Shown here piece after piece: positions 19,906-51,485 of a DNA stretch of 52,827 nt. How positions within the stretch are numbered: position 1 is the stretch's first letter; each line of letters opens with the position of its first letter. Origin of the DNA: an uncultured Methanobacteriaceae archaeon (GTDB lineage Archaea; Methanobacteriota; Methanobacteria; Methanobacteriales; Methanobacteriaceae); assembly GCA_964444115.1 (NCBI GenBank), contig CAYUFT010000002.1, positions 1-52,827 on the forward strand. Reading direction: 5' to 3'. The position numbers were made by a program, and so were the translations under genes. A model generated the notes under the pieces. The model was not told the origin of the DNA. It was given only the letters and a program-made list of their open reading frames with translations, and ran no database searches.

Positions 19906-20188
19906 TTTAAATTATTAAAATATTCTACAAAATAATATTCCATTTTTTATATATAATTTTATGGATAACATTGAAAATTAATAAAATACATGAAATTAGT
20001 TGATTTTCCAGTTTATTTGTAGATGAAAGTTTAGAATTTAATTTACAAAATTCATTTTTTCTATTTCTAAAATTACATTATAATAGTTACTATTGAATAT
20101 AATAGCAAATATTATAATATACTAAATCATATCTTAACTAAGGTCATTGAGGATTGTAAAGTATGTATAAAGTATACAATTACAACTA

Positions 20189-20890: not shown

Positions 20891-20902
20891 TGGGGTAAAA
20901 TC

Positions 20903-21670: not shown

Positions 21671-21689
21671 AATGAAAAGAGGGTAAAAT

Positions 21690-22253: not shown

Positions 22254-22263
22254 GAGAAACAAT

Positions 22264-22938: not shown

Positions 22939-22953
22939 AATGGTGGATAATAT

Positions 22954-25695: not shown

Positions 25696-25745
25696 AAAAT
25701 CACCTAGTAATTAAATTAAATAATAAATTGAACGATTAATAATAA

Positions 25746-28550: not shown

Positions 28551-28665
28551 GAACTTAGATTTATTTATAAATTTTAAACATTATTGATAAAATACTCCAT
28601 ATTATATATAAATTTAAATAGAATAAATATATATTTTTTTATTTAATTTCAAAGGGGTGTTATTA

Positions 28666-28812
28666 GTGGAATCAATTAAAAAAGAAACTAGAGTAGTAAA
28701 ATATAAAACTGGAGAATATGATTTTAGAGATGAAATAAACTTAATTGAAATGTTAAATCAGCTAAAGCCTAAGCCGGACCAATTAGTTGAGATTATTATT
28801 TCAAAAAAGTAA
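28666..28812 (+). CDS. Possible 48-aa small ORF between the two helicase genes
   Basis: GTG start 7 nt after GGGGTG. Encodes (M)ESIKKETRVVKYKTGEYDFRDEINLIEMLNQLKPKPDQLVEIIISKK. Below the ORF-track cutoff and with no homology evidence. Confidence 0.25.
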   Translation: MESIKKETRVVKYKTGEYDFRDEINLIEMLNQLKPKPDQLVEIIISKK

Positions 28813-28839
28813 AGAATAGGAAATAATCCTGAAATGGGC

Positions 28840-32050: not shown

Positions 32051-32242
32051 ATGACGGGGGATGAACAGTTTGCAAATATTCTTCTCAAAGAAGTTTTTGA
32101 AGATTTTATAAAAGAATTAGAAAACGATACAGAGTTTCCAAAATATGTTATCAACAATTTAAAGAAATTTAAAACTTATGATTTAACATCAAAAGAAACC
32201 ATGTTAAAATCTTTAAAAAGAGAGGATTCTAATGAAGATTAA
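32051..32242 (+). CDS. Small acidic protein (63 aa) overlapping the start of the ABC ATPase gene
   Basis: ATG preceded by AGGTG. 11-nt overlap with the 32232 gene. No motif. Confidence 0.4.
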   Translation: MTGDEQFANILLKEVFEDFIKELENDTEFPKYVINNLKKFKTYDLTSKETMLKSLKREDSNED

Positions 32243-34701: not shown

Positions 34702-36258
34702 ATGGCAGTGAATAACAGCGAGATAGAAAACAAATTATGGAAAGCAGCCGATCAACTGAGAGCAAACTCAAAATTAACAGCCTCTGAATACTCAATTCCA
34801 GTTTTAGGACTAATTTTTTTACGTTATGCTGATTCTAAATTTACTTTGGCAAAAGAAAAGATAGAAAGCGAATTTAAAAATAAGAATAGTCGGATGGGAA
34901 TCAAGAAAGAACACTATCAATCAAAAGGTGTTCTATATCTCCCTGAAGAATCACGTTTTTCAAATCTTCTAGAACTGCCTGAAGACCAAAATATAGGAAG
35001 GGCAGTAAATGATGCCATGAAGGCCATTGAAGCTGAAAATGATGAATTAAAAGACGTATTACCCAAAACTTACAACCGATTAGAAAATGATGTATTGATT
35101 TCATTATTAAAAAACTTCTCTAACATATCAATTGATCTTGAAGGAGATGTTTTTGGGAAAATTTACGAATATTTCTTAGGTAAATTCGCAATGGCTGAAG
35201 GCCAACGGGGAGGAGAATTTTTTACTCCTACATCTTTAGTTAAATTGATAGTAGCGATAATCAAACCATTCCATGGCCGTATTTATGATCCTGCATGTGG
35301 TTCTGGAGGTATGTTTGTCCAGAGTGCTCATTTTGTAGAAGAGCATAAAAAAAATCCTACCAAAGAAATAGCAATTTATGGGCAGGAAAAAACTGCAGCC
35401 ACTATAAGATTATGTAAGATGAATCTTGCCGTGCATGGTTTATCCGGAGATATAAGACAAGGAAACACGTATTATGAAGATATACACAACTCTTTTGGTA
35501 AATTCGACTTTGTAATGGCCAATCCACCATTTAATGTGAGTGGGGTCGATAAAGAAAAGGTTAAAGACGATAAAAGATTTTCTTATGGTATTCCTCGTGC
35601 TGACAATGGAAACTATCTCTGGATTGAAGCTTTTGCCAATGCACTTAATCCAAAAGGGCGTGCCGGATTTGTCATGGCCAATTCTGCTGGTGACGCTGGA
35701 CAGTCTGAACTTGAAATTCGTAAAAAGTTAATCGAAGAAGGAATTGTAGATGTAATGGTTTCAGTAGGGCCTAATTTCTTTTATACTGTAACTTTACCTT
35801 GCAGCCTATGGTTTTTAGATAAAAACAAAAAAGGAACTCCTACTGAAAATAAAGTTCTTTTCATAGATGCTCGTGAAACTTATAGGCAAATTGACCGTGC
35901 ACATCGCGATTTTAAACCAGAACAAATTGAATTTTTAGCAAATATTGCTAGACTCTATCGTGGAGAAGAAATCGAGAATTTACATAATAGTAAATCGTTA
36001 GTTAATGAAACTTTTCCCGAAGGAGAATATAAAAATGTTTTAGGTCTTTGTAAATTAGTAAATTTTGATGAAATCATTGAAAATGGATATTCACTGAATC
36101 CTGGCCGTTATGTTGGTGTTGCTGAAATGGAAGAAGATGAATTTGATTTTAATGAGCGTTTGCATGAAATAAATAATGAGTTTCAACATTTGAATAAAAA
36201 AGCCCATGAATTAGAGAAAACAATTACAGAAAATTTATCTTCTTTATTGGAGAAATAG
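34702..36258 (+). CDS. hsdM: Type I restriction-modification system, methyltransferase subunit
   Basis: HsdM N-terminal helix bundle (LWKAADQLR), FFTP, motif [13 protein letters not shown], motif [11 protein letters not shown]. Confidence 0.95.
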
Positions 36259-36259
36259 C

Positions 36260-37561
36260 ATGCTTAAATTTCATAAATTAGATAATGTGACAAATTTCCT
36301 CGGTAGGGGTGTTCAGCCAGCCTATGATGAAAATGGAATTATTGTTTTTAATCAAAGGTGCATTAGGAATAATATTGTAAGTTTAAAGGAATCTCGAATT
36401 ACTAATCCTGAAAAAAGAAAAATTTCTAAAGAAAAATTTCTTCAAAAATATGATGTTTTAGTTAATTCAACGGGTGTAGGCACTCTAGGACGTGTTGGGC
36501 AGATTAAAGATATAAATTACGCCGCTACTGTGGATTCTCATGTAACCATTGTGAGACCGAATTTAAGTTGTTTTAATGGATTATTTTTTGGATATGCAAT
36601 GGTGTATTCCCAACCAAAAATAGAAGCTATGGGAGAAGGTACTACTGGTCAGACAGAACTTTCTAGAAAACGTTTAGGTTCTCAAATTAAAGTTCCTATC
36701 CCTAATTTAGAAATTCAAAATAAAATTGCTGAAATTCTTACAGCATATGATAATCTTATTGAAAACAATAATAATAGGATTCAAATATTATCTAAATTAA
36801 CAGAAATTATTTTTAGAGAATGGTTTATAAAATACAGATTCCCAAGTAAAGAAAAATTCGAAATGATTGAATCAAAAGTAGGATTAATACCTCAAAATTG
36901 GGAAATTAAGCCTTTGAGAGAGCTAATTTCTTATTACATTGGTGGTGGATGGGGAAAAGAATATCATGAATCTGATTTTCCTGATGAAGCATATGTAATT
37001 AGAGGTACTGACATACCCCAAGTTTCAGTTGGAAATTTAAAATCGTGTCCACATCGATTCCATAAAGCTTCAAATTTAAAATCAAGAAAAATTAAATCAA
37101 CGGATATTGTATTTGAGGTTTCTGGAGGAAGCAAAGGTCAACCCGTAGGTAGAAATATTCTCATTACAGAAGAAGTTGTTAATAGGCTGAGTAATATTAT
37201 GTGTGCGAGTTTTTGTAAATTGATTAGGCCTAATAATGAATTAATTAGCCCATTCTTTTTAGATCAATTCTTTAAATATATTTATAAATCTGGTGAAATT
37301 TTAACTTATCAAACACAATCAACGGGAATTTCAAATTTCAAATTTGAATATTTCTTAGATAAAGTTATGATCGCTGTTCCTCCTAAAGAGTTATCAATTG
37401 AATTTACAAATATTATATCTCCGATTTATGAATTGATAGCTAAATTAGGCCATAAAAACGAAATTTTACTTCAAAAAAGAGATTTAATCCTTCCCAAACT
37501 TATTTCAGGCCAAATAGATATCACAGATTTAGATATTATCACAGAGGAGATAGAATCATGA
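36260..37561 (+). CDS. hsdS: Type I restriction-modification system, specificity subunit (two TRDs)
   Basis: Two variable halves, each followed by a conserved helix (ILTAYDNLIENNNNRIQILSKLTEIIFREWF and LLQKRDLILPKLISGQIDI). 1-nt gap from hsdM and 4-nt overlap with hsdR. Confidence 0.9.
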   Translation: MLKFHKLDNVTNFLGRGVQPAYDENGIIVFNQRCIRNNIVSLKESRITNPEKRKISKEKFLQKYDVLVNSTGVGTLGRVGQIKDINYAATVDSHVTIVRPNLSCFNGLFFGYAMVYSQPKIEAMGEGTTGQTELSRKRLGSQIKVPIPNLEIQNKIAEILTAYDNLIENNNNRIQILSKLTEIIFREWFIKYRFPSKEKFEMIESKVGLIPQNWEIKPLRELISYYIGGGWGKEYHESDFPDEAYVIRGTDIPQVSVGNLKSCPHRFHKASNLKSRKIKSTDIVFEVSGGSKGQPVGRNILITEEVVNRLSNIMCASFCKLIRPNNELISPFFLDQFFKYIYKSGEILTYQTQSTGISNFKFEYFLDKVMIAVPPKELSIEFTNIISPIYELIAKLGHKNEILLQKRDLILPKLISGQIDITDLDIITEEIES

Positions 37562-40500
37562 CTCCAGGTTCATATTCTGAAGATGCATTGATTGAACAAC
37601 CAGCCATTGAATTGTTCAAGTCTTTAGGCTATGAACATAAAAATGGTTTTCATGAGACATTAGGTGAAAATGGAACTTTTAGTAGAGAAACTCAATCAGA
37701 AGTTGTTCTTAAAAAGCGATTAAAAGATTCTCTAATTCGTTTAAACCCTGGAATACCAGATCATATCATTGATCTTGCAATTGAAGACATCAGTAGAGAT
37801 AGGAGTATTCTAAATCCTACTGTGGCCAATCATGAAATTTATAAAATGATTCGAGATGGGATTAAAGTAAGTGTCAATTTTGATGAGGAATATGAAGAAA
37901 TTGAAACTCTAAAGATAATTGATTTTGATAACCCAAATAATAACGACTTTTTTTTGGCTTCACAGTTCTGGATCACTGGAGATATTGAGAAAAGAAGAGC
38001 AGATTTAGTAGGTTTTGTTAATGGCCTACCCCTTATTTTTATTGAACTAAAAGCAGCACATCGGAAAGTTAGTGATGCATTTACACATAATTTATCAGAT
38101 TATAAAGATACTATTCCCCAATTATTCTGGTATAACACTTTTATTATATTATCAAATGGTTCTCAAAGCAAAATTGGAACCATATCTGCTAAATTAGAAC
38201 ATTTTAGTGATTGGAAAAGAATTTCTAGTGAAGGAGAAAAAGGAATAATTTCTTTAGACACGATTATAAGAGGAACTTGTCAAAAAGAAAGATTTTTAGA
38301 TTTATTAGAAAACTTCACATTATTTAATGACGGTGGAACTCTGATTAAGATTCTAGGAAGAAACCACCAATATTTAGGAGTTAATAATGCCATTGAATCT
38401 TTTGAAAAGATTAAAGAAAACCAGGGAAAATTAGGGGTTTTCTGGCATACTCAGGGGAGCGGGAAAAGTTATTCCATGATTTTCTTTTCACAGAAAATTT
38501 TAAGGAAATTCCCTGGAAATTACACTTTTTTAATTGTTACTGATAGAAAAGAGTTAGATGATCAGATTTATAAAAATTTTGCCAATGCTGGTGCAGTAAT
38601 TGAGGATGAAGTACATGCAAAAAGCGGCGCCCATTTACAAGAGCTCTTAAGAGAAAACCATCGCAATATTTTCACACTTATCCATAAATTTCAAACAGAT
38701 GAAGGTGAAATCTATCCTGTTTTATCGGAACGTTCAGATATCATTGTTATTACTGACGAAGCACATCGTTCTCAGTACTCTACACTGGCCATGAACATGC
38801 GAACTGCACTTCCTAATGCTGCTTTTATTGCGTTTACCGGAACTCCTTTAATGGCGGGAGAAGAACTTACTAAAAATACCTTTGGGGATTATGTTAGCAT
38901 ATACAACTTCCGACAGTCTATTGAAGATCAGGCAACGGTTCCTTTATACTATGAGAACCGTATCCCAGAAGTTCAACTCAAAAATAAGGATCTTAACTCA
39001 GATATGGAGCGTATTATTGAAGATGCGCTGCTTGATGAGGACCAGCTGCAAAAACTTGAGCGAGAATTTGCCAGAGAATATCACTTAATAACTCGCAATG
39101 ATCGGCTCGAAAAAGTTGCAGAAGATATTGTCGATCATTTTATAGGCCGTGGCTATGATGGAAAAGCCATGGTAGTGTCCATTGATAAACCAACTGCAGT
39201 TAAAATGTACAATAAAGTTCAAGAATACTGGAAACATCATATTATTGAACTCCAAGATGAAATTAATCTTATTGATGATCCATCCCATAGAAAAGAGCTT
39301 GAAAATAAGCTTAATTTTATGATGGAAACTGATATGGCCGTTGTGGTAAGTGGTGGTCAAAATGAATTTGAAAAGTTCAAGCGCCTTAATTTAGACATAA
39401 AATCCCATCGTAAGAGAATGCAAAGTGAAGATTTAGCTTCCATGTTCAAAGATGCTGATAACCCTTTCAGAATTGTTTTTGTATGTGCTATGTGGATGAC
39501 TGGTTTTGATGTTCCTTCACTTTCAACCATTTACTTAGATAAACCAATGCGTAACCATACACTAATGCAGACTATCGCAAGAGCAAATAGGGTCTTTGAA
39601 GATAAGCCAAATGGTTTAATTGTTGATTACATTGGAGTATTTAGAGATTTGAAGAGAGCTTTGGCAATATATGGAGCTCCTGGAGAAGAATCAGAGGATA
39701 TTCCTGTAAAACCAAAATCAGAACTCATCGAAGAACTTAAAGAAGCATTAGATGAGATTGAAAGTTTTTGTAAAGAAAAAGAAATTAATACAATAGATAT
39801 TATATCTACAACAGGTTTTGAGAAAGTTAAACTCCTTGAAGATGCTGTAGATTCAATTTTAGTTAATGAAGATTCTAAAAAGAAATATTTTACCTTAGAA
39901 AGTGCTGTAAAAAACTTATTTAAAGCAATATTGCCTGATCGTGATGCTGGAATATTTAACGAAAAGGTTACATTATTTAGAATAATTTCCGAAAAAATTA
40001 GATCTTTAGATCCTGATGTTGATATATCCGAAGTAATGGACGACGTTGAGAAATTACTCGATGATTCGATTGAAAGCGAAGGATATATGATAAAAGCTAA
40101 AGGAAAAGGGATAGATTTAAGTAAAATCGACTTTGATGCTTTAAGAAAACACTTCGAAACAGGTAGAAAACATACAAAAGCAGAAAAGCTCAAAAATGAT
40201 GTTCAAAGAAAGGTTAAAGAGATGGTAACTCTTAATCAAACCAGAATAGATTTCATGGAAAAATTTGAAAAGATAATAAACGATTATAATTCTGGATCTG
40301 CCAACGTAGAAGCATTTTTTGAAGAATTGATGGAATTTGCAAAGGAGTTGAATAAAGAAGATATAAGGGGCATTTCTGAAAATCTTACTGAAGAAGAATT
40401 AGTAATCTTTGATTTGATTTACAAAGATGATCTAAAAGAAAAAGAAAAGAAAAAAGTTAAAAATACAGCTAAGTATCTTCTTAAAGTTCTAAAAAACGAA

Positions 40501-40701
40501 AAATTAGTTATTGACTGGAGAAAAAAACAGCAGTCAAGAGCTGATGTGTTATTTACTATTGAAAGCATTTTAGATGAATGTTTACCAAGAAGTTACTCTC
40601 CAGAAATATACGAAGAAAAATGTAATTTTGTTTATCAGCATATTTATGATTCATATTATGGGGTTGGGGAAAGCCTATATTCCAAAATGGGAATTGCTTG
40701 A
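37558..40701 (+). CDS. hsdR: Type I restriction enzyme, endonuclease/translocase subunit
   Basis: N-terminal nuclease region (RADLVGFVNGLPLIFIELKA), WHTQGSGKS, VITDEAHRSQ, FTGTP, QTIARANR. Confidence 0.95.
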   Translation: MTPGSYSEDALIEQPAIELFKSLGYEHKNGFHETLGENGTFSRETQSEVVLKKRLKDSLIRLNPGIPDHIIDLAIEDISRDRSILNPTVANHEIYKMIRDGIKVSVNFDEEYEEIETLKIIDFDNPNNNDFFLASQFWITGDIEKRRADLVGFVNGLPLIFIELKAAHRKVSDAFTHNLSDYKDTIPQLFWYNTFIILSNGSQSKIGTISAKLEHFSDWKRISSEGEKGIISLDTIIRGTCQKERFLDLLENFTLFNDGGTLIKILGRNHQYLGVNNAIESFEKIKENQGKLGVFWHTQGSGKSYSMIFFSQKILRKFPGNYTFLIVTDRKELDDQIYKNFANAGAVIEDEVHAKSGAHLQELLRENHRNIFTLIHKFQTDEGEIYPVLSERSDIIVITDEAHRSQYSTLAMNMRTALPNAAFIAFTGTPLMAGEELTKNTFGDYVSIYNFRQSIEDQATVPLYYENRIPEVQLKNKDLNSDMERIIEDALLDEDQLQKLEREFAREYHLITRNDRLEKVAEDIVDHFIGRGYDGKAMVVSIDKPTAVKMYNKVQEYWKHHIIELQDEINLIDDPSHRKELENKLNFMMETDMAVVVSGGQNEFEKFKRLNLDIKSHRKRMQSEDLASMFKDADNPFRIVFVCAMWMTGFDVPSLSTIYLDKPMRNHTLMQTIARANRVFEDKPNGLIVDYIGVFRDLKRALAIYGAPGEESEDIPVKPKSELIEELKEALDEIESFCKEKEINTIDIISTTGFEKVKLLEDAVDSILVNEDSKKKYFTLESAVKNLFKAILPDRDAGIFNEKVTLFRIISEKIRSLDPDVDISEVMDDVEKLLDDSIESEGYMIKAKGKGIDLSKIDFDALRKHFETGRKHTKAEKLKNDVQRKVKEMVTLNQTRIDFMEKFEKIINDYNSGSANVEAFFEELMEFAKELNKEDIRGISENLTEEELVIFDLIYKDDLKEKEKKKVKNTAKYLLKVLKNEKLVIDWRKKQQSRADVLFTIESILDECLPRSYSPEIYEEKCNFVYQHIYDSYYGVGESLYSKMGIA

Positions 40702-40739: not shown

Positions 40740-42884
40740 ATGAAACTATTTGAAGAATCTGAATTAATTCAGTCATCAATATCTTATTTAAGGAATGAAT
40801 TAGGTTTCAGTTTAATTGATTATGAAGTTCCATTTAATATTGGAAAAACAAAAAATAGGGCAGATATTGTAGTTTATAAAAAGAAAAATAATGAACAAAA
40901 GCCCTATATTTTAGTTGAAGTTAATTCACAAGATAAAATCGGAAAATATGCATGGATTCAAGCTGAAAGCTATGCTAAAAGATTAAAAACTCCTTACTTT
41001 GCTGTTACAAATGGTAATGAATGGCAATGGTTTAAAACTGGGAAAATTGGTGAATCTGATGAAATTAATATTGATCAAATAAATCGTTCTGGAACCACTG
41101 TGGGTAAAATTACTATTAAAGATCAAAAACATTTTTTAAAAGTTTTTGATCATATGAAACAGATTGTATATGAATCTGAAAATTTAAGATCAGATAAAAC
41201 CCTATATGAACTAATAAAAATAATATTTGTTAAGTTGGAATATGATAAAGACATTAATAAAAAAAATTCTTTAATTGGTGAAGACAGAAGTTTAACAGAC
41301 GGAATTAATGATTTTTATCAAATAAAGCTAAAAAAATACCCTAAATTGATTGATTCGAAATTAAACGAAAATTTTTTTAGAATAAACCTTAGTGAAGAAA
41401 CAATTTCTAAATTAATTAGTATTTTAGATCAATTTAAATTTATTGATTCCGATGTTAATGAATGTTTTAATCTTAATCTGCCTACTTTGGGTTATAACTT
41501 CAAAAATGAATTAGGATATTTCTTTATACCTCTTGAATTAAGTAAATTCATTGTTAATTTTATTAATCCAAGTATTGATAATTCAATTTTAAATCCTGCC
41601 TGCAAAAACGGAGCTTTATTAATTGAAACAATTAAAAAAAATTGTGAAGAGTTAAAAAGCTCAGAAAAGCCTGAAAATATTAAAGCTAATATATCTAAAA
41701 AAATTCATGGAATAGAAGATAACCCTGAACTTTACTGGTTTACTTGCATGAATTTAATTCTACATGGATATAGTGCTGATGGAATATCCCTTACAGATAC
41801 CTTAAATTTAGAAGAAAATGATAAATACGATATAATTTTTGTTATGCCCCCATTTGGCCATATAAATCGTTTTAATAATTTTATATCTGATGAAAATTTA
41901 AGAATAAGATATACAGAAGAAGCTTTTTTATTAAAATCTATTAAATTGCTTAAAAATTCAGGCAAAATGAGTATAATATTACCTGATCGAGTTTTGACGA
42001 GTCCTAGTGCTAGACTTTTAAGAAAATATTTAAAAGAAAAAATGAATATTTTATCGATTATTTCTTTACCAAATAACATTTTTATTCATAAAAATATTAA
42101 AACATCCATTTTGTTTCTCGAAAAAAAAGAAGAAGGATTTTCTAAACAAAAAACCGTTTTTATGGTTGATTTCCAATCTAAACATCAATTAAAGGAAAAG
42201 GATTTTAATGAAGTTTTAGAAGATTACATTCTTTTTAAAAAGACAAATTTAAAAAAGGGACGAATAAGTGAGAGTTCTTTCGCAGTGAATGAAGATTTGA
42301 TTATTGAAAATGATGTTTTAAGTACTTCTTATTATAATCCCGAATATTTAGAAATTAAAAATCAATTAAAAAAATTAAAGAATCAAAAAAAATTAAAAGA
42401 TATTGGTGAAATATCCATAGGACAAAGATTTAAAGATAATTTTGAATCATCTGACAGCAGCATACCTCTTATAAAGATTAAAAATATAGTTGATGGAAAA
42501 ATTTCAAAAAAAGATCTAAAATTTATAGAGATAAATAATCCTCGGACGAAATTATGGTCACCTGATACGTTAATAATTTCTCGAATTGGACTAAAAAATA
42601 AAATTGCAATATTACCGCCTGATTTTCCAAAATATACTCTAGATAAAAATTTAATAGGTATAAAACTTGAAAAAAACGTTATACCTGAATATTTGGCTTT
42701 ATTTTTAAATTCGAAATATGGAACGGTGCAGTTAGAATCAATAAAAGTTTCTGGAATAATTCCATATCTTGGTTTATCACATTTAAAGGAGATTATTATA
42801 CCTCTAAACTCAATTAAAGCTCAGAAAAAAATTTTGGAATTAAAAGATGGAAATGAAAATGATTTTTTTATGGAGATTAAATAA
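40740..42884 (+). CDS. Fusion protein: HsdR_N-like PD-(D/E)xK-fold N-domain + HsdM-like domain with degenerate catalytic motifs + a single HsdS-type TRD
   Basis: N-terminus NRADIVVYKK...PYILVEVNSQDK...YFAVTNGNEWQWF. MTase fold FFIPLELSKFIV, IHGIEDNPELYWFTCMNLILHG, SIISLPNNIF...TSILFLEK. Motif I reads ILNPACKNGALL (41592-41612) and motif IV reads FVMPPFG (41844-41855), not DPACGSG and NPPF. The C-terminal 190 aa or so are TRD-like. Confidence 0.8.
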   Translation: MKLFEESELIQSSISYLRNELGFSLIDYEVPFNIGKTKNRADIVVYKKKNNEQKPYILVEVNSQDKIGKYAWIQAESYAKRLKTPYFAVTNGNEWQWFKTGKIGESDEINIDQINRSGTTVGKITIKDQKHFLKVFDHMKQIVYESENLRSDKTLYELIKIIFVKLEYDKDINKKNSLIGEDRSLTDGINDFYQIKLKKYPKLIDSKLNENFFRINLSEETISKLISILDQFKFIDSDVNECFNLNLPTLGYNFKNELGYFFIPLELSKFIVNFINPSIDNSILNPACKNGALLIETIKKNCEELKSSEKPENIKANISKKIHGIEDNPELYWFTCMNLILHGYSADGISLTDTLNLEENDKYDIIFVMPPFGHINRFNNFISDENLRIRYTEEAFLLKSIKLLKNSGKMSIILPDRVLTSPSARLLRKYLKEKMNILSIISLPNNIFIHKNIKTSILFLEKKEEGFSKQKTVFMVDFQSKHQLKEKDFNEVLEDYILFKKTNLKKGRISESSFAVNEDLIIENDVLSTSYYNPEYLEIKNQLKKLKNQKKLKDIGEISIGQRFKDNFESSDSSIPLIKIKNIVDGKISKKDLKFIEINNPRTKLWSPDTLIISRIGLKNKIAILPPDFPKYTLDKNLIGIKLEKNVIPEYLALFLNSKYGTVQLESIKVSGIIPYLGLSHLKEIIIPLNSIKAQKKILELKDGNENDFFMEIK

Positions 42885-43681
42885 TGAAATTTTCATCCTC
42901 CGATATTTTCTGTATTTGTAAAATTATTAATGATTATTTCCCGTTAGAAGTCATTATCGGTGAGTTAACTGAAATTACTAATGATCAGGATTTAGATACA
43001 TTTCCAGAAATTCAGGAAACTATTTATAATTCAACTCAATCATTAAACTCAGATGCTATTAATGAATTAAGCGAATATTTTCATAGTTATCATATTAACT
43101 TTTTTTTGTTTATTAAAAAATTTGTCTCTGAAGAATTTTCAGAAACTTATTTAGAATATTTCCAATCATCAGATTTCTTAAAAAAGTTAAATAAAATTTT
43201 AATTGCCTATGAAATACGTATTAAAAACTATAAAATCCAAAAAAGAGTTTTTTTATTGCAAAATAGCTCTTTAGAGGAAAATTTATTATTTGTAGATATA
43301 ATAACACCAGATCATGTTGTTGATTATTACAAAGAATCATTAATTTGTCTAAATAATGAAACATTTAGATCATCTATTCTTTTTTGTGTTTTTGCTTTTG
43401 AGGCCGGGCTAAAATGTATGTATTATACTGTAGAAAAAAAAATTCCAAACGAACCGCTTCGTAGATTAATAGATTGGGCCAATAATAATAATCTTTTAGA
43501 AAAATTAGATGAAGACTATGATGAAGGCTATGAGGAATTAATTAAATTAAAAGATTATAGGAATATTCTTGTACATTGTAGTCCAAAGGAACGCGAAGAT
43601 ATCTCTTCAGAAATTGCAGGAAACCGAGCAGTAGCTGATTTAAATTTAATTAACCAGTCTTTAAATTCAATATTTGATTAA
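42884..43681 (+). CDS. HEPN-domain protein (predicted RNase)
   Basis: C-terminal four-helix pattern with FAFEAGLKCMYY... and the R-x4-H motif KDYRNILVHCS (43559-43576). Its start shares 1 nt with the stop of the upstream gene (TAATG). Confidence 0.6.
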   Translation: MKFSSSDIFCICKIINDYFPLEVIIGELTEITNDQDLDTFPEIQETIYNSTQSLNSDAINELSEYFHSYHINFFLFIKKFVSEEFSETYLEYFQSSDFLKKLNKILIAYEIRIKNYKIQKRVFLLQNSSLEENLLFVDIITPDHVVDYYKESLICLNNETFRSSILFCVFAFEAGLKCMYYTVEKKIPNEPLRRLIDWANNNNLLEKLDEDYDEGYEELIKLKDYRNILVHCSPKEREDISSEIAGNRAVADLNLINQSLNSIFD

Positions 43682-43694
43682 TAGGGGGGCTTAG

Positions 43695-46600
43695 ATGAAA
43701 TGGACATTTATTATAAATAAAGATTTTTATTCCGAACTAAAATCCAAGAATGAAATAAAATGGAATAGTGCTAAAGAAGTGAAGAAAGGAGACATAATTT
43801 TAATATATACTGGATCTCCTTACAGCAATATTGGTTTCATTTTAAAAGCTATTTCAGACCCTTTTGAAGATTCAGAAATAAGAAAAGCCTGGGATAGACC
43901 AGCAATAATGGTTGAAAAATTACTCGAAATTCCAGAACCTATCGAACTATCTCAACTAAAAGAAAACCCCATATTAAGCAATTGGGGTGCCGTGAGAATG
44001 GGTTTTAGGGGTTCTCATTTCAAAATGTCACAAGAAGAGTGGAAAGAAATAATAAAACTTATTTTAGGGCAAAATCCTGAATTGGAAGTTGAAATTCTAA
44101 ATTTAGAAAACATATTATCAAATGGGACAATTAATCCAGAAACTATACATTATAATGATTTAAGTGCTGGTCGGGCCCATTTAGTTCGTGATTTATGCTA
44201 TTTAATAGAAAAAAATAGTAATTTAAGTGAAAAAAAGCTTTTTGATATCTTAAGGAGAAAAGTAGGAAATAATGATAATTATTGGAAAGCATATTTTTTA
44301 AGATCTAATAAAAATAACAGTCCTCAGTACAGTTTAAATTCAGCAAGAAGTTTAGGGCTGGTTGAAAAAAATTCACTACACCTAACTGAAACAGGAAAAG
44401 AATTAGCAGATTTATCTACATCCAATGAATTATTCACTCATTATTATGGGCTAGAAGTAAAAAAGTTCTTCTTTAAATTGGCTGCTTCTATCCATTCTAT
44501 AAAAACAGCTATGCAAATTTTAAAGGAAAAAAGAGAATTGCGTTTTTATTCTCCAACCTGTAAAGAAATTGATAAAGTGACTTGGGACTGGAAGATCGAA
44601 AATGGAAAAGTAATTTGTGAATCTGACAAATATAACAAATGTAAATTATGTGATAACGATTTTATGACTCATATGAAAGAATCATCACTACCCCTTGAAA
44701 CTATGCAAAAAACTAATGGGGAAGGATACGGATTTGTATTCTGGATGTGCAGTCGTATCACTCCAATGCATTTGAAAGGTTCAGATCCAGTTTATTCTGG
44801 AAATTATATTTATTGGGATGATGATGCTGAAAAAGAGCTTGGGCATCTAATTAAAATATTAGATGAAAATAAAAATTCATCCCCCAAAGTATGGAAAATA
44901 TCTCCAGGTAACTTTGAAAAAAGAAAAAAATTATGGCCAATCCTTGTTGAAAAAGGTTATATTGGAGTAGGATGGTTTGGTTGTGAATCTTTTATCAAGA
45001 AATCATTTTCTCAATTTAAATCACTAGATAGTTTAAAAGAAGAACTTCAAAAATGCTCCAAAAAGAAAGCAGTTATAAAAAATGCAGACATGATATGGAA
45101 TTTTGGAAAAGAAATTAAAATTGGAGATTATGTTGTAGCTAACAATGGCCTTAAAGGAATATGGGGCATAGGAATAATAAAAAGTGATTATATACCTCCA
45201 GATGAATCAATTAAGTTGAAGATTGATGAAGATAATGAATATTTCCATTTCAGAAAAGTTGAATGGTTAATAACCGCTCCTATTGAAATGAAAGAAGATT
45301 ATTTTTTTGTACAACAAACTATTAAAAAAATAGATTCCGAGAAATGGAAAAAAATTAAGTCATCTTATATTAAAATAAACCCTGAATATGAACGTATTTT
45401 CAGAGAAATGGAAAATAAGTCGAAAAGTGGGGACATTGAACAAGAAATTAAATTAATTAAAAAGTTATATGCTGAATTCAATAAAGATTATTTTTCAAAA
45501 CCAATAGGCATAGAACATGCTGAGGGCTATGAAAAAGAAAGACAAGAAGTTCTTAAATATTACAACAAAATTAAAGATAATCCTGAAATTTTTAATGATA
45601 CCAATAACCCAATAATTAACTACCTCTTGCCAATAAAACGTTTTTCAGTTGCTCCTACCGGATTCAATGATATTAAAGCTGTTCGAAGAAGAGAAGATAA
45701 TCTGCCTGAATTTTCAGAGTCTGTTTATAATCTAATTATTGATTTAATCAACAAAAATGATTCTAATGAACAGAAAGAGGTAATTAATACATTTAAAACA
45801 GGAGATGGGAAGGGAATACAGTCTGCAGTTTTATCATCAGTTCTTTATTTCTTAAACCCAACTTATCTATATATTAACACAAAGACTGTAAAAACTTTTA
45901 GAATATTATCTGAACTTTTAGGTCATGACAAATATATCAATGGGAATTTAATCGACTATATTGATAATTTAAAAAGATTGAAAGAATTGAAAAATGAAAT
46001 TTCTGCAATTATACCCGAATTTAAAGATTTTGAGGTTTTTGATGCCTTCTGTAACTGGATGTGTGATGCAAATCTAGGTGCTTATGCAGTTAATGGTATA
46101 AAACTCGAAATTTTAAAAAAGAATTATGATTTAAACATCAAAAATTCATTTGAAATCCTTTTAGAAAATTACAACAAAGCTAAAGTAGATAAAGTTTCAC
46201 CTGCTGAAAAAATCTTAGTAAGAGACCTATTATCAACTACAATCCCTGAAAAGTTATCTGAAATAAATCAGGGCCAATATAAAATATTCAGTAGCGCTTG
46301 GGATAAATGGCATTATTGTCCCTATGTGGCCTTGATGAATGAAAAAATCACATCTAAACATATAACTGGATATTATGTTAATTACATGTTTAGAGAAGAT
46401 ATGAGTGGCATTTATCTGGCCTTAAGGCAAGGTGTGCCAGAATTTGATAAAAGAAAGCTGGCTAAAAATTCAGAAGAATATAGAAGTAAAATAAGATCTC
46501 AAAAAGAAGTTACTGAATTTTCAGAAGAAATTGACCTAAAATCCTCTCAGGGCCAATTTGGAAAGTTTTATGAATCTGCAAATATCTACTCCAAATTTTA

Positions 46601-47831
46601 TCCAAAAGAGAACATCCCTTCTGAGGAAGAATTAATCTCTGATCTTGAAAAAATGCTAAAACTTTATGATGATTTAAGTGAATTAACTTCTATTCAATTT
46701 AATTCATTCAATGACTTTTTAAAAGATAAGAACTTCTTATACACTCCAGAAATGTTGGAGAATTACTTACTTTCATTGAAGGTCAAACCATTTGTCATAT
46801 TAACGGGTAACTCCGGTACTGGTAAGACAAAAATAGCACAGCTTTTTGCAGAATACTTAGAACAAAAAGATGTAGGTGAATCAGTAATAATACCCGTGGG
46901 TGCTAACTGGACTGAAAATAGACATCTAATGGGATTCTTTAATGTGATAACCAGTGACTACCAGTCAACCCCAGCCCTAGATCTAATAATAAAGGCCTCA
47001 AATGACAATAGTAAACCTTATTTTTTAATCCTGGATGAAATGAATCTTTCTCATGTGGAACGTTATTTCTCTGACTTTTTATCGGCCATGGAAAGTGGTA
47101 AAGAAATATCCCTATATTCCAAGGATAATGCTAAAGTTATTAAGAACAAACTAATCCCTGAAAAACTGGAAATTCCAGATAACTTATTTGTTATTGGAAC
47201 CGTTAATGTGGATGAAACAACCTTTAGGTTATTTCCTAAGGTTCTGGATAGGGCCAATACTATTGAATTTAAAACATATCCTGCTAGGGACTACATAATG
47301 TGTGAAATTGAACATGAATCTCCCAAAGGAGATATTAATTATTTAGAGAATCCCATATCTGATTTTAAAATGAGAAAATGTAAAATAAACAATTTAAAAG
47401 ATAAATTAACTCACGTGAAAGTCAATGACAATAATAACCTCTGGGAAGAGTTGGCCTTAGAGATTCATTCATTCCAAGATGTTTTATCCACAGCAGGCTT
47501 TGATTTTGGATTCCGAGTTATTGATGAGATAATGAGATTCATGTATACTGCCTGGCTTTATGAAGATTCACCCGATGAATGGAATAACTGGGAGCGTTAT
47601 TTTGATGCTCAAATTATGCAAAAAATGCTTCCTAAAATTCATGGCTCTCAAAGAGAGCTTGAAACTATTTTAGAAGAACTTTTCAAAAAATGCTACCGAA
47701 GTAATTTTGAAGAATTGTGGTATTCAATTAATTTAGAAGGAAATGACATTATTTATGCATCAAGTGCTAAAAAGCTTCAAAGAATGGGTAAAACTCTTCA
47801 GGAAAAACGATTTGTATCATTTACGGATTAG
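43695..47831 (+). CDS. mcrB: McrB-like AAA+ GTPase with an N-terminal EVE/PUA-like domain, a second PUA-like domain and a DUF3578 (MrcB_N)-like domain
   Basis: EVE-like aa 1-125 (KGDIILIYTG...IGFILKAISDP...LSQLKENPIL...FKMSQEEWKEI). Second PUA-like domain about 44885-45300 (KVWKISPGN...GYIGVGW...IKIGDYVVA...GIGIIKSDY...FRKVEWL). DUF3578-like about 46250-46435 (WHYCPYVALMNEKITSKHITGYYVNYMFREDMSGIYLALRQG). AAA+ region: VILTGNSGTGKTK (46806-46829), FLILDEMNLSHVERYFSDFLSAME, FVIGTVNVDETT, LDRANTIEF. Confidence 0.85.
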   Translation: MKWTFIINKDFYSELKSKNEIKWNSAKEVKKGDIILIYTGSPYSNIGFILKAISDPFEDSEIRKAWDRPAIMVEKLLEIPEPIELSQLKENPILSNWGAVRMGFRGSHFKMSQEEWKEIIKLILGQNPELEVEILNLENILSNGTINPETIHYNDLSAGRAHLVRDLCYLIEKNSNLSEKKLFDILRRKVGNNDNYWKAYFLRSNKNNSPQYSLNSARSLGLVEKNSLHLTETGKELADLSTSNELFTHYYGLEVKKFFFKLAASIHSIKTAMQILKEKRELRFYSPTCKEIDKVTWDWKIENGKVICESDKYNKCKLCDNDFMTHMKESSLPLETMQKTNGEGYGFVFWMCSRITPMHLKGSDPVYSGNYIYWDDDAEKELGHLIKILDENKNSSPKVWKISPGNFEKRKKLWPILVEKGYIGVGWFGCESFIKKSFSQFKSLDSLKEELQKCSKKKAVIKNADMIWNFGKEIKIGDYVVANNGLKGIWGIGIIKSDYIPPDESIKLKIDEDNEYFHFRKVEWLITAPIEMKEDYFFVQQTIKKIDSEKWKKIKSSYIKINPEYERIFREMENKSKSGDIEQEIKLIKKLYAEFNKDYFSKPIGIEHAEGYEKERQEVLKYYNKIKDNPEIFNDTNNPIINYLLPIKRFSVAPTGFNDIKAVRRREDNLPEFSESVYNLIIDLINKNDSNEQKEVINTFKTGDGKGIQSAVLSSVLYFLNPTYLYINTKTVKTFRILSELLGHDKYINGNLIDYIDNLKRLKELKNEISAIIPEFKDFEVFDAFCNWMCDANLGAYAVNGIKLEILKKNYDLNIKNSFEILLENYNKAKVDKVSPAEKILVRDLLSTTIPEKLSEINQGQYKIFSSAWDKWHYCPYVALMNEKITSKHITGYYVNYMFREDMSGIYLALRQGVPEFDKRKLAKNSEEYRSKIRSQKEVTEFSEEIDLKSSQGQFGKFYESANIYSKFYPKENIPSEEELISDLEKMLKLYDDLSELTSIQFNSFNDFLKDKNFLYTPEMLENYLLSLKVKPFVILTGNSGTGKTKIAQLFAEYLEQKDVGESVIIPVGANWTENRHLMGFFNVITSDYQSTPALDLIIKASNDNSKPYFLILDEMNLSHVERYFSDFLSAMESGKEISLYSKDNAKVIKNKLIPEKLEIPDNLFVIGTVNVDETTFRLFPKVLDRANTIEFKTYPARDYIMCEIEHESPKGDINYLENPISDFKMRKCKINNLKDKLTHVKVNDNNNLWEELALEIHSFQDVLSTAGFDFGFRVIDEIMRFMYTAWLYEDSPDEWNNWERYFDAQIMQKMLPKIHGSQRELETILEELFKKCYRSNFEELWYSINLEGNDIIYASSAKKLQRMGKTLQEKRFVSFTD

Positions 47832-47836
47832 GTATA

Positions 47837-49624
47837 ATGATTACCCAAGAAATTAAAATCAGTTTCCAAGATGCATATGGGAATAATCTAGGAACACTGA
47901 TTATTACTTACTCTAACAAACACATTGAAGAGTATGAAACCTTCTCGAAAATGATTAATGGCAATTATATTGAATTTAAAAATGTTCCTCGAGTTTTTAA
48001 AACAAATCAGAATACAGCCATAGCATTTAATGAAAATAAATGTGTGCATGAGAGCATATTGCTACTGGAAGAAACGGAATATCAGCTTTTTTTCACTCCT
48101 GCGAATATTAATATTGAAAATATTTCATTTCCCACACTGGAAAAAAAAGACAAAACCCCGGTTTTCAAGAAATTAAATATTAATAGGGCTGATATTTACA
48201 GCGGAATTCTTAATTTCAAAGCATATGCTGGTAAATCATTTTTTGATGTTCAAATTGATAAAAACGTCTCTTTAAAATGTCCCTTCGAAGTTCGATCTAA
48301 AAAAATAGATTATATTAATCACTACTCCTCCATGATTAGTGATCTTTCACAAGCCGATTCTTCAATTATTCTTTATGATAAATCTCCGGTTCACAGTTTA
48401 CTAAACTTTGAAGAAAGGGTAAAAAAGAGTTTTTATGAAGATTTCATGTTTTTAGAATATATTTTCCGCCCTGAGAATCTTCCAACTTCTTATGGGCATA
48501 TAAGAAGAGACCCTCATAGAATACTAATTAAATATACTGAAACAGTCCCTATATCATTAGCATCATCTGTAGGGCCTTCCAGTTTAATTGATATAGTGGC
48601 TTGTCCTGAAAACCTGACTAAAACAGATGAAGTTCCTTTTAACTGGCCAGCTGAAATGAAGAACCTGGTTCCTCAGAAAGTCGCTAAAGAGAGTTATATT
48701 GATAATCTGGATACTCCTGAAAACAGATTTATTAAGTATTTTTTAACTTTATTATTTGAATTAATCAGTGAAATGAATTTATATATTGAAAAGGAAGGTA
48801 TTAATGGATATCCTGCTGAGAAGATAATAGAATATCAAGAAATTATTCAGGAATATGTTATGGATGAATGGGTAGATGAAGTAGGTAAACTGGATCATTT
48901 CCCATCAAATTCTCAAGTTCTACAAAAAAAAGAAGGATATCGAGAAATTTTTGACTATTTCCTAATATTCGAGTTCAGCTTTAATTTCCAGTTCGAAGAA
49001 GTAAAAGAAGAAATTAAAGGATATCAAAAAAAGCTCAGTGAACTTTATGAATACTGGTGCTATCTTAAACTTATTAAAATTATGAGTAAATTATCCAGAG
49101 TTAAAGTTAATTATTCCTCTATTTTCGATTTAAATAGAAAAAAATGGTCTATTAAGGTTAAAAGAGGGGAAGAATCATCTCAAAAATTTATAATCCCCTT
49201 AAATGATATGGATTTGGAAGTAGAATTAGAGTTTAACAGAGAATTTAAAAAATATGAATTAAATTACAATCCATATCCCTTAAAATATAGGCCAGATTAT
49301 ACAATTATAGTGAAAACAAGTTATTATAAAGTATTTTTACATTTCGATGCTAAATATAAACTAAACAAAGAAACTTTTAAAAATGAGGATATTTTTAAAA
49401 TGCATACATATAAAGATGCCATTAAATATTCATCAGGGGCTTATGTATTATATCCCGGTCTGAAAGAAGGAATATATTATGAAAACGAAAAAACTGTGGC
49501 ATCTGTAGGAGCATTCCCTCTTAAACCCGGAAAATTAGATATTGAAGATGAAAATAAGATAGAAACATTTTTAATTAAATTTTTAAACTTAATTTCAGAA
49601 GAATCAGAGGACAATATTAAATAA
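47837..49624 (+). CDS. mcrC: McrC-like protein (DUF2357-type N-region + PD-(D/E)xK nuclease, DUF524-like)
   Basis: 5-nt gap after the McrB-like gene. C-terminal nuclease motif YRPDYTIIVK...FLHFDAKYK (DAK at 49346-49354) ...HTYKDAI. Confidence 0.8.
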   Translation: MITQEIKISFQDAYGNNLGTLIITYSNKHIEEYETFSKMINGNYIEFKNVPRVFKTNQNTAIAFNENKCVHESILLLEETEYQLFFTPANINIENISFPTLEKKDKTPVFKKLNINRADIYSGILNFKAYAGKSFFDVQIDKNVSLKCPFEVRSKKIDYINHYSSMISDLSQADSSIILYDKSPVHSLLNFEERVKKSFYEDFMFLEYIFRPENLPTSYGHIRRDPHRILIKYTETVPISLASSVGPSSLIDIVACPENLTKTDEVPFNWPAEMKNLVPQKVAKESYIDNLDTPENRFIKYFLTLLFELISEMNLYIEKEGINGYPAEKIIEYQEIIQEYVMDEWVDEVGKLDHFPSNSQVLQKKEGYREIFDYFLIFEFSFNFQFEEVKEEIKGYQKKLSELYEYWCYLKLIKIMSKLSRVKVNYSSIFDLNRKKWSIKVKRGEESSQKFIIPLNDMDLEVELEFNREFKKYELNYNPYPLKYRPDYTIIVKTSYYKVFLHFDAKYKLNKETFKNEDIFKMHTYKDAIKYSSGAYVLYPGLKEGIYYENEKTVASVGAFPLKPGKLDIEDENKIETFLIKFLNLISEESEDNIK

Positions 49625-49661: not shown

Positions 49662-50912
49662 CTATTCAAATATTTCTAGTTCATCATCAAAATTGTCCCA
49701 TTCTAGATTGTCAAATAAGTCAATTATTTTTTCACTGGAGTCGAATTTATCTGGATTTTGTTGAACTATATCCAGCGCACTGACTACTCCCCGAACATAA
49801 TCTCGGGGCTGTACTGAACCGGTAAGAATCGATTTTTCTTTGTAGAAATCAATGATACTCACAATTAAACTATCATCAAATTTATCTGTGATTTCATTCC
49901 CATATACTGAAGAATACAATACTAGGATTTTTCTAGTTAATGTGTCCAGATCTTCATTAGTAAATCCTTCCAACTTCATAATAGGCTTTCTAAAATCTTT
50001 ATATTCAGATTCTATAGCATCTTTAATTCTCTGATGCAAGGCTGGATAGGAGGGAACCCCTTTTTCTGGATTTTCAAAAAATTCATCAGTACCGGCCATT
50101 ACAAACAGGGTCTTTTCAAAATTACCTAAATTGCACTCATCATACAAATATCTAACATAATCCAGAGCCGTGGATCGGATATTCTTATTGGCCAGCATTA
50201 TAATAAATTCAATCTCATCAATCAATATAACAAGACCATTGTAACCTATAGATGAAATAAAAGCAGACAAGGCCTTTAAAAAGTCAAATACATTTTCCTT
50301 AGAAACTCCGCCCTTAACTCCAAATTGTCTTTTCACGGTGAAAGGAATATTATCATCACATCTTAGCCAGGCCTGGGCATAGTTAGCAATTTCATCATCA
50401 CCATTTACCGAAGCCTCATAGTAACTTTCAATAGCTGTAACAAAGGAATTAGAATAATTTCGGGCACTCTGCAAATCAATGTGGATATTATCCATCACAA
50501 TATGATTTTGCTGTAAAGGGTCTTCCGTTTCATCCATAGCCGCGATTTTAAGTTCATTTATCCATCTTTCAATGATATGCTGCAGTGAAACTCCAGTTTT
50601 ACATTTTAAAGTGCTTACAATTTTTCTATAAACTTCTTCAAATTTATTAAAGGGAACATCACGAGTAATAGTTATCTTAGAGACTACAAAATTATTTTCC
50701 AGTGCATTTTCCTCAATCATTTTCAGTAAGAATGATTTTCCAGTCCCAAATTTTCCTTCCACAAATTTTGCGGAACCTTTTCCTTGTTTAATGTTTTCCA
50801 GTATATTTTGAAATTCTAAAATTTCTGAATCCCGTCCCACCGAAATTTCAAAAGTACCCTCTGGAGGAACATTTCCATCCTTTAGTGCCCTTATTATATC
50901 TTCATTTTCCAT
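49662..50912 (-). CDS. P-loop ATPase (DUF2791/BrxD-like by pattern)
   Basis: Walker A VEGKFGTGKSFLLK, Walker B GLVILIDEIEF. 9-nt gap after the upstream co-oriented gene. The family name is from memory of the motif layout and has not been searched. Confidence 0.65.
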   Translation of the reverse strand: MENEDIIRALKDGNVPPEGTFEISVGRDSEILEFQNILENIKQGKGSAKFVEGKFGTGKSFLLKMIEENALENNFVVSKITITRDVPFNKFEEVYRKIVSTLKCKTGVSLQHIIERWINELKIAAMDETEDPLQQNHIVMDNIHIDLQSARNYSNSFVTAIESYYEASVNGDDEIANYAQAWLRCDDNIPFTVKRQFGVKGGVSKENVFDFLKALSAFISSIGYNGLVILIDEIEFIIMLANKNIRSTALDYVRYLYDECNLGNFEKTLFVMAGTDEFFENPEKGVPSYPALHQRIKDAIESEYKDFRKPIMKLEGFTNEDLDTLTRKILVLYSSVYGNEITDKFDDSLIVSIIDFYKEKSILTGSVQPRDYVRGVVSALDIVQQNPDKFDSSEKIIDLFDNLEWDNFDDELEIFE

Positions 50913-50921
50913 TTTAACCCC

Positions 50922-51485
50922 TCACCGCAGTTTAATATAAGCCAATTGATTATCGTTTCCCCTTGAATCAAAAAGTTGAACAAATTTTTTAGGATCCCGA
51001 GAAGTGGTATGTACTATACCTACTTTCCATACATTATATCGATAAAAGTTATTTATTTCTGTTAAACTCTTGGTAATCCCTTGAGATTTAATTAAAGCAT
51101 GTAATAATTTAATAAATTCCTTAATTTCAATTTGATTTAGATTTTGAGTTTCTTGAAGGACTTCATATAATCCCGATATGGAATTAAGAATAAATTCATC
51201 ATAATTAAATGAAATTGACTCAAAATATGTAGGAAATTCATCAGTGGATGTTGATTTTCTGAAAACTCTTTTAAAATCAGTCTCTGAAATTTCCCGGTAC
51301 TCTGAGTTAAAGTAACTGGAAAATTTCTTTTTATTCTTTACAAACTCTAGGCCATCGACATCAGAAACTATTACTGGATTTCGGAAATATTTGATAACCG
51401 CCAATTCAATTTTATGGGCGGACTTATCAAATCCTAGAATTTCATCATCAGACCGGAATAACCGCTTAACGAGACCAAATCCCAC
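50922..51485 (-). CDS. Hypothetical protein; the reading frame stays open 76 codons further upstream (to 51713) encoding a PUA/EVE-like segment without a canonical start
   Basis: The track ORF starts at GTG 51485 with no RBS. The upstream in-frame translation ...HFEGDYIKDKKFHNSPKYWIHRLEPDYIDSFHKKKIISSRSPQARAINKVNTKDRILFVCPINVGKSKKIAFVGFGLV is protein-like. Only ATA/ATT codons follow the TAA at 51716-51714. Confidence 0.55.
   Translation of the reverse strand: MGFGLVKRLFRSDDEILGFDKSAHKIELAVIKYFRNPVIVSDVDGLEFVKNKKKFSSYFNSEYREISETDFKRVFRKSTSTDEFPTYFESISFNYDEFILNSISGLYEVLQETQNLNQIEIKEFIKLLHALIKSQGITKSLTEINNFYRYNVWKVGIVHTTSRDPKKFVQLFDSRGNDNQLAYIKLR

Follow-up and report, generated by a model that had tools for sequence, protein, structure and literature searches.

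The DNA analysed here (the window) is a stretch of 52,827 nucleotides from an uncultured Methanobacteriaceae archaeon (contig CAYUFT010000002.1), and at positions 40740-49624 it carries four tightly packed open reading frames (ORFs) on the + strand, designated A, B, C and D, which lie next to a Type I restriction-modification (R-M) system. Our reading of this locus, to which we give about an even chance of being right, is that three separable modules are stacked there: the Type I R-M system, a non-methylating sensor or decoy derived from R-M components (A) together with a HEPN effector (B), and an independent Type IV McrBC system (C and D) with multiple reader domains. We are more confident that the modules are separable, and less so about the logic by which the A-B pair would be triggered. 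The naturally dead fusion of methyltransferase (M) and specificity (S) functions in A is a new variation, in archaea, on the theme of PrrC and Ronin, and C-D is a new member of the known McrBC kind. The stop codon of A and the start codon of B overlap by 1 nt, and gaps of 13 nt and 5 nt separate B from C and C from D. The closest relatives of all four proteins are from Methanobacterium or Methanobacteriaceae, and with the ~30% G+C content of the window and a pseudomurein-binding-repeat protein encoded in it they make a Methanobacterium-type methanogen almost certain as the host. Since homologues exist for each of the four proteins, A-D are real genes and not chance ORFs. An original prediction, made from the letters of the window, had described the block as a candidate novel system; its domain calls, including the dead methyltransferase motifs of A and residues R226 and H231 of the HEPN protein, are all correct by Pfam, PADLOC and alignments. 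The hidden Markov models (HMMs) of PADLOC-DB 2.0.0 name no system for the block, and of the four proteins only C matches a candidate model, PDC-M26A.

Gene A (40740..42884, + strand, 714 aa) encodes a nuclease-like head, a degenerate gamma-class N6-adenine methyltransferase (MTase) fold and a single target-recognition domain (TRD), as judged from Pfam, PADLOC and eight clade homologues. The head is an HSDR_N_2 PD-(D/E)xK-like domain identified by Pfam and by alignment (40758..41042, +; residues 7-101, 1.7e-14), and the body is an HsdM-like fold (41499..42317, +; N6_Mtase, residues 254-526, 1.6e-36). The TRD (42372..42881, +) is matched by the PADLOC S-subunit (Specificity_I) models at about 1e-14 and by NCBIfam S-subunit models as well, and because the S-subunit matches are confined to residues ~549-701, A has one TRD. 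The MTase motifs were read from an alignment to solved HsdM structures and 18 relatives. Opposite the 'vcDPACGTGGFL' and 'laNPPFG' of StySJI HsdM (PDB 2okc, 3e-26), A has 'ilNPACKNGall' and 'fvMPPFG', respectively, and its motif X is FFIP, not FFTP. Thus the S-adenosylmethionine (AdoMet) loop of motif I (41592-41621), canonically (D/E)PxxGxGxF, is NPACKNGALL in A and NNG, NTG or KNG across the clade, as compared to GSGG in 10/10 active relatives, and motif IV (41844-41855), canonically (N/D)PP(F/Y/W), is MPPF in A and IPPF, FPPF, FPPL or FPHF in the clade. The GxG and the N of NPPF are both absent from all seven members of the 714-aa clade examined for them, the catalytic N being replaced by M, I or F, and both are kept in 10/10 more distant relatives, which include the neighbouring HsdM, where motif I and NPPF are intact. 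A sister clade of 966-967 aa proteins with two TRDs has intermediate motifs (GKG, DPPM). A still has the E of motif II, the D of motif III and motifs V and VIII, and from the aligned motifs it is most likely that A no longer methylates. D42 and E60 of the nuclease head are found in A and are invariant in the clade; K62 is changed to N (EVN, codon 40923-40925) in the window only, whereas the 8 other clade members, among them the copy of locus L002 at 87% identity, keep the K.

Type IIB and Type IIG enzymes (BcgI-like and MmeI-like) are built in the order N-terminal PD-ExK nuclease, gamma-class N6A MTase and TRD(s). The same order of parts, TRD included, is seen in A, and active relatives of A are accompanied by a separate two-TRD S subunit, as in BcgI. 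Unlike these enzymes, A lacks the GxG loop and the catalytic N, its window copy lacks the nuclease K, and it has a HEPN partner, which is foreign to them. Membership in MADS (bioRxiv 10.1101/2023.03.30.534895) was considered and rejected: the NCBIfam/PADLOC mad2, mad5 and mad8 models give weak matches to A and to McrB-like ATPases, with 99.6 bits for MAD2 and 58.8 bits for MAD5 against NCBIfam cut-offs of 720 and 400 bits, and MADS, unlike the A-D locus, has eight genes and an active MTase.

Despite the loss of these motifs, purifying selection acts on every domain of A. Ratios of non-synonymous to synonymous substitution (dN/dS), estimated by the Nei-Gojobori method within the dead clade (54-87% identity) and to be taken as a rough measure in an AT-rich genome (the G+C content of the whole window is ~30%), are 0.25-0.39 for A overall. 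In unsaturated pairs the nuclease head, the most conserved domain of A, has values of 0.16-0.29, as compared to 0.24-0.30 in the MTase-like domain and 0.20-0.44 in the TRD. Because dN/dS is low in every domain, A is not decaying neutrally and is not a pseudogene. This bears on the possibility that A-B is a functionless, decaying R-M remnant and that the Type I and McrBC systems alone are active. Such decay would fit the lost MTase motifs, the K62N change in the window and the state of two other loci, i.e., L005 (Methanobacterium petrolearium AP027739, 10001-17664), where A is split into ORFs of 476 aa and 224 aa, a DDE_3/HTH insertion sequence disrupts the McrB gene and the whole A-B-McrB-McrC block is decaying, and L004, where the B gene is called as a shortened 171-aa ORF. 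It is contradicted by the dN/dS values of 0.2-0.4 that hold in all domains of A over 54-87% identity, by intact ORFs in 6 loci, by invariant HEPN catalytic residues and by the retention of translational coupling, and we consider it highly improbable. Since all of its domains are under purifying selection despite the loss of MTase motifs, A is most likely a binding or sensor scaffold.

The TRD of A is conserved as much as the MTase domain (identity ratio ~0.9-1.1) and shows no diversification; in the active relatives described below, S subunits are 39-40% identical where the M proteins are 63-69% identical. The TRD of A has no meaningful similarity to the adjacent HsdS, nor do any of the A-type TRDs to the neighbouring S or IIG proteins, so that these comparisons give no evidence for a specificity shared with the adjacent R-M systems. 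A fixed TRD would fit one conserved target, and this is among the points in favour of a reading in which A is a modification-dependent, sequence-specific reader or nuclease whose dead pocket flips out and recognises methylated adenine, A-D then being a Type IV-style array against modified viral DNA. Only hydrophobic residues (M, I, F) take the place of the catalytic N, and the motifs for base stacking and fold (PPF, V, VIII) persist; the clade conserves the nuclease triad; and modified-base readers adjoin A-B, namely the EVE, PUA-like and MrcB_N domains of C and a GmrSD-HNH protein upstream in L001 and L005. The proposal is purely inferential, however: no precedent for an MTase-fold reader of N6-methyladenine in restriction is known to us, and none was found in the literature searched; the nuclease K62 of the window copy is N, and the conservation of a HEPN partner even beside active MTase relatives is left unexplained. 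We regard it as very unlikely.

Gene B (42884..43681, + strand, 265 aa) encodes a helical N-domain (42884-43258) followed by a HEPN domain (43310-43678) with an R226-N227-x3-H231 motif (43559-43576). Searched directly in Pfam, PADLOC and NCBIfam, B has no match, and only 24 relatives turned up when 1.84 billion representative proteins were scanned with an HMM. In 8/8 sequences R226, N227 and H231 are invariant, in agreement with the Rx4-6H motif, and E173 is invariant in the family as well; the N and the H each reach at least 90% conservation across 22 distant members. These distant members, found via the family profile, match Pfam families of the HEPN clan (DUF4145, 3.6e-10; HEPN, 2.3e-6; HepT-like, 1.2e-5). 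The assignment of B to HEPN is thus well supported by motif and transitive homology, without structural support: the AlphaFold2 (AF2) model of the C-domain has helices at 143-264 with a predicted local distance difference test (pLDDT) score below 70, and a Foldseek search of the B model against the PDB gave no match with E<1, the best (AbiA, E=1.2) being not significant. The N-domain (residues 1-125) is modelled by AF2 as all-helical (pLDDT ~90) and has no P-loop; no relatives of it were found in Pfam or the PDB, and the B profile against PDB sequences gave insignificant Sec7/RalF-like matches to the N-domain only. That this domain might mimic the HsdR contact surface was considered and rejected, as the B profile aligned to the window HsdR with a probability of 0.8%.

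The coupling of B to a TRD-bearing gene extends well beyond the window. Dead-clade A-type proteins are present at eight other loci (L001-L007 and L016), each with a B homologue directly after it, and in every locus recovered B directly follows a TRD-bearing gene, with stop and start codons overlapping or abutting (counted for the dead form in the window, L001, L002, L003, L005, L006, L007 and L016, and for the active form in L008, L009, L010, L014 and L015). Distant B homologues (24-31% identity) were traced to their contigs and, where upstream sequence was recovered, the preceding TRD-bearing gene is a separate two-TRD S subunit, upstream of which is an HSDR_N_2-MTase of 557-571 aa with fully intact AdoMet and NPPFG motifs. 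These active triads have no McrBC downstream (L008, L009, L010, L014 and L015). In the fused two-TRD form, motifs are partly degenerate and the gene lies beside a Type I system, and in 7/7 fully dead single-TRD loci the order A-B-McrB is kept with a short B-C gap. Comparison of these sequences suggests an order of descent from the active triad of nuclease-MTase, S subunit and HEPN protein, through the fused two-TRD form, to the dead single-TRD form. Neither the B family nor its obligate association with nuclease-MTase/S modules seems to have been annotated before, and the analysis defines a HEPN family with a unique N-domain that, in all recovered loci, is directly downstream of a TRD-bearing gene. 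The dead form is rare and confined to one genus, with about 8 sequence clusters each for A and B and one species among 185,579 reference genomes. A search for more loci added one from a genome collection (Methanobacterium sp. MZD130B) and one 1.8-kb contig from a metagenome collection, and a broader B alignment had no match among IMG/VR viral contigs. As a separate observation, a small MazE/AbrB-like gene precedes active triads (L008 6444-6919; L009 3542-4017; L014 4611-4802; L015 245-436), and in L008 and L009 a helix-turn-helix (HTH) gene is also found upstream of the triad; such genes might have a controlling role comparable to that of R-M C proteins.

HEPN proteins have been linked to R-M operons in at least 16 clades, a pattern read by analogy with PrrC, which is held latent by the EcoprrI R-M system and released by a phage anti-restriction peptide; a clade of DUF4145 type is noted to share operons with R-M and McrBC genes (Anantharaman et al. 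2013, PMC3710099). As in PrrC-EcoprrI and these R-M-linked HEPNs, B is a predicted HEPN RNase in or beside an R-M operon and a proposed latent second line. Unlike PrrC and RloC, B has no N-terminal ABC/Rad50-like NTPase, its N-domain being without detectable relatives, and its partner is a nuclease-MTase(-TRD) of BcgI/Type IIG-like type, degenerate in the window clade, rather than a Type Ic enzyme. The second precedent is Ronin (HsdM, HsdS and RonA; Silas et al., bioRxiv 10.1101/2023.04.06.535777), in which HsdMS with a linked toxin was shown experimentally to be a decoy triggered by Ocr and ArdA. Ronin acts independently of the NPPF catalytic residue (F287G is dispensable) and adjoins composite Type I/Type IV loci or BREX. 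A-B resembles Ronin in having an M-S protein without a working restriction role tightly linked to a putative toxic effector and in adjoining Type I/IV loci, and by analogy the same logic may apply, i.e., binding of an anti-restriction protein to the M-S decoy would release the effector. There are clear differences: Ronin is marked by a small membrane toxin and an hsdMS that lacks hsdR, and here an intact hsdR is present, its end 38 nt before the start of A and in the same orientation. The effector of A-B is a soluble 265-aa HEPN protein with no sequence homology to RonA, a membrane peptide of 61 aa; A fuses M and S, adds an N-terminal PD-(D/E)xK-like domain and has only one TRD; its MTase motifs are naturally degenerate; and the host is archaeal.

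In our reading, the A-B pair descends from an R-M triad made up of a nuclease-MTase, an S subunit and a HEPN protein; the MTase and one TRD became fused into the single chain A, with loss of the AdoMet-loop and catalytic residues. B, translationally coupled to A, would be a HEPN RNase whose N-domain presumably docks on A, and A would keep B latent, as proposed from the behaviour of PrrC-EcoprrI and Ronin. Disturbance of A, e.g., by a viral anti-restriction factor in its DNA-binding cleft or by foreign DNA, would release B, and the freed protein would cleave RNA and bring growth to a stop. The original prediction had included a hypothesis of this type, in which the dead fusion is a decoy that senses anti-restriction proteins aimed at the adjacent Type I enzyme and activates the effectors; the sensing of anti-restriction proteins by a decoy fits the data best, and what does not carry over is its novelty, given the precedents of PrrC-EcoprrI and Ronin, and the involvement of McrBC, as the HEPN protein by itself is all that the scheme needs. 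Should this scheme prove correct, A-B would be the first case in archaea of decoy or guard immunity assembled from R-M components, and a natural case of a decoy MTase that has been allowed to die, which would support the finding with Ronin that catalysis is dispensable for sensing.

Several points weigh against this interpretation of A-B. The interpretation is built from sequence and analogy, and the HEPN fold of B is itself deduced from the motif and transitive profile matches. To our knowledge, no DNA-mimic anti-restriction protein has been reported from archaeal viruses (this was not searched). Outside the window, every clade member keeps the D, E and K of its nuclease head; A may therefore still cut DNA, an activity that a pure decoy would not need. 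The constant A-B-McrB order in the dead loci may reflect functional coupling of the pair to McrBC. Tight co-adaptation of A and B is also not obvious: between the window and the metagenome contig L002 (window 40740-44087 compared with L002 10001-13337), HsdM, HsdS and HsdR are 98-99% identical, A is 87%, B 55% and C 48-62% identical, and this drop in identity points to a recombination boundary near the A/B junction.

The third module is formed by genes C and D. Gene C (43695..47831, + strand, 1378 aa) encodes a multi-reader McrB that consists of an EVE domain (43695-44069), a Zn-ribbon/helical insert (44172-44879), a second PUA/EVE-like domain (44886-45332), a helical region (45336-46088), an MrcB_N/DUF3578 domain (46137-46679) and an NxD-type McrB GTPase (46728-47828). 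The Pfam matches are EVE at residues 18-122 (5.5e-10), MrcB_N at 823-995 (8.5e-32) and AAA_5, and a precomputed match to DUF8426 lies somewhere in the N-terminal 800 residues. The AF2 model of residues 1-810 (pLDDT 82) is matched by Foldseek to EVE, THYN1, ASCH and YTH structures, and residues 396-548 are a second PUA-like domain by hhalign comparison with the EVE domain (probability 90.5%, E 1.3e-6). In alignment with E. coli McrB (PDB 6hz4, 2.8e-6), the GTPase shows Walker A GNSGTGKT, Walker B LILDEMN and the signature GTVNVDE (N-V-D-E), so C has both the AAA+ GTPase motifs and the modification-reader-type N-terminal domains of an McrB, binding to modified DNA being predicted. Gene D (47837..49624, + strand, 595 aa) encodes McrC, with DUF2357 (48203-48961; Pfam 9.3e-46) and a PD-DxK nuclease (49040-49465; PDDEXK_7, 5e-27) whose catalytic motif, PD486...D504-A-K506 (49292-49354), is intact. 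EVE, PUA-like and MrcB_N domains would read modified bases, the NxD-type GTPase ring would translocate and McrC would cut DNA.

In the GTPase motifs of C, the DUF2357 and PD-DxK domains of D and the N-terminal readers, C-D resembles the McrBC systems with EVE or ADAM (DUF3578) readers described by Bell et al. (2020, PMC7641849; 2024, PMC11090510). The NxD(E) signature marks a large branch of McrB that is often MTase-associated (PMC11090510), and the McrBC of the window, assigned to that branch by motif alone and not by tree, has a neighbouring MTase-like gene and a Type I R-M system. C-D differs from described McrBCs in that C has three reader modules in one 1378-aa chain and in that the associated MTase-like protein, A, is degenerate. 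It is not a CoCoNuT (PMC11090510), as C, despite its NxD motif, has globular readers in place of coiled coils, the nuclease of its McrC (D), often inactivated in CoCoNuTs, is preserved, and the HEPN protein goes with the MTase-like gene A rather than being contained in CnuE.

Relatives of C bear on the origin of its architecture. Its N-terminal 800 residues have 68 homologous clusters in Methanobacteriaceae with many architectures, as compared to about 8 clusters for A and for B. Loci L017-L019, from other Methanobacteriaceae, have a tandem of two McrBC pairs with a tetratricopeptide repeat (TPR) gene upstream and without A-B, and in L001 and L007 the same tandem is placed after A-B. The first pair consists of an EVE-DUF8426-AAA_5 protein and a 419-544-aa partner with McrC hallmarks (PENQ, RPD...EVK), and the second of an MrcB_N GTPase and a DUF2357 McrC, to which, in L007, D is 42% identical. 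Residues 1-798 of C match the reader array of the first McrB type and residues 815-1378 match the entire second type; the first GTPase and its McrC are absent from the window. By these sequence matches, the McrB of the window is a domain-shuffled chimera of two McrB types with a junction near 46088-46137, the two types being separate genes in L001, L007 and L017 (tandem counterparts L001 12969-21272 and L007 10811-18293). We had considered a unique deletion-fusion as its origin and have softened this, as the combination of EVE/DUF8426, MrcB_N and AAA_5 recurs in many Methanobacteriaceae proteins. Multiple readers and domain shuffling in the McrBs of Methanobacteriaceae are of narrower interest than the A-B pair.

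The occurrence of A-B-like triads without McrBC and of McrBC tandems without A-B makes the two modules separable. This is a difficulty for an integrated four-part system in which A directs the McrBC motor-nuclease to defined sites or licenses it there, the HEPN protein adding a second effector. Favouring such integration, the A-B-McrB order is held in the seven dead loci despite varied upstream R-M cargo (Type I, or PLD-helicase with an Eco57I-like MTase) and even though the McrB GTPase and McrC partner have been swapped, the portion of C that stays with A-B being the N-terminal reader array; associations between McrBC and MTases have also been noted as ancestral in a census (PMC11090510). However, an SMC-like left flank is common to those of the seven loci in which that flank can be seen, so that the adjacency of A-B and McrB may be inherited synteny within one genus; C already has three reader domains of its own, and no fusion or other direct link of A or B to C or D was found. 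We think an integrated system unlikely. Of the original prediction of a single four-function system, the constant gene order in the dead loci is what stands, and the independent occurrence of A-B and McrBC and the chimeric make-up of C speak against it; its more specific hypothesis, that the TRD protein licenses or targets McrBC, is not supported. A bolder version would have the loss of MTase chemistry coincide with the capture of McrBC, A having become a fixed-specificity base-flipping reader, possibly of methylated adenine, that licenses both the HEPN RNase and McrBC in a four-component gated machine. An archaeal machine of this sort, gated by both sequence and modification and combining restriction with abortive infection, seems to us distinctly unlikely.

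The setting of these genes is a defence island that occupies the second half of the window and includes Schlafen/AlbA_2, two NERD proteins, a DEAD/MZB-TPR helicase, an SNF2-HNH protein, an SMC/LmuB-like ATPase, the Type I R-M system, A-D and a convergent BrxD-like ATPase. The Type I R-M system (34702..40701, + strand; Pfam/PADLOC) is intact and consists of HsdM (34702-36258), HsdS (36260-37561) and HsdR (37558-40701). To its left is an SMC_N/AAA_23 ATPase (32232-34604) that matches LmuB in PADLOC (1.8e-33), with no LmuA seen. The same SMC-like ATPase is a conserved left border of the island in several Methanobacterium genomes (L001 1-901; L002 1492-3867; L005 1-792), and the R-M cargo between it and A varies, being Type I in some loci and, alternatively, PLD-helicase with an Eco57I/MmeI-like MTase, DUF365, GmrSD-HNH and DUF1802. 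Repeats bordering the A-D block, sought as a sign of a mobile cassette, were AT-rich chance matches only.

To the right, convergent with the McrC gene, is a BrxD/SngB-like ATPase (49662-50912, - strand; BrxC_BrxD 3e-95), with no other BREX gene in the window, and beside it a 187-aa protein (50922-51485, -) whose sole match is NCBIfam PRK00809 ('hypothetical protein', 1e-7). Three co-oriented genes at 24556-31911 (-) may be a further defence module; they encode a 379-aa protein with a weak Mu-Gam/TOTE-like match, a DEAD helicase of 934 aa that has an MrfA Zn-binding (MZB) domain and TPRs at its C-terminus, and an SNF2/ResIII-HNH protein of 1023 aa. At 14030-16165, 17142-17990 and 23701-24540 are an HVO_A0114/MarR-like winged HTH (wHTH) gene followed by a Schlafen AlbA_2 and HATPase_c_4 protein, and two separate NERD-domain proteins. 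At 11536-12634 (-), a wHTH and nucleotidyltransferase (MNT-like) gene overlaps a second gene, of 177 aa, for which Pfam gives no match; the pair may be a toxin-antitoxin of the MNT-HEPN type. Finally, a cluster of zinc-ribbon/DUF7577 membrane-type proteins of a sort typical of Methanobacteriales is found at 8267-8941 and 19189-23670, one member having a pseudomurein-binding repeat and another an Hsp20 fusion.

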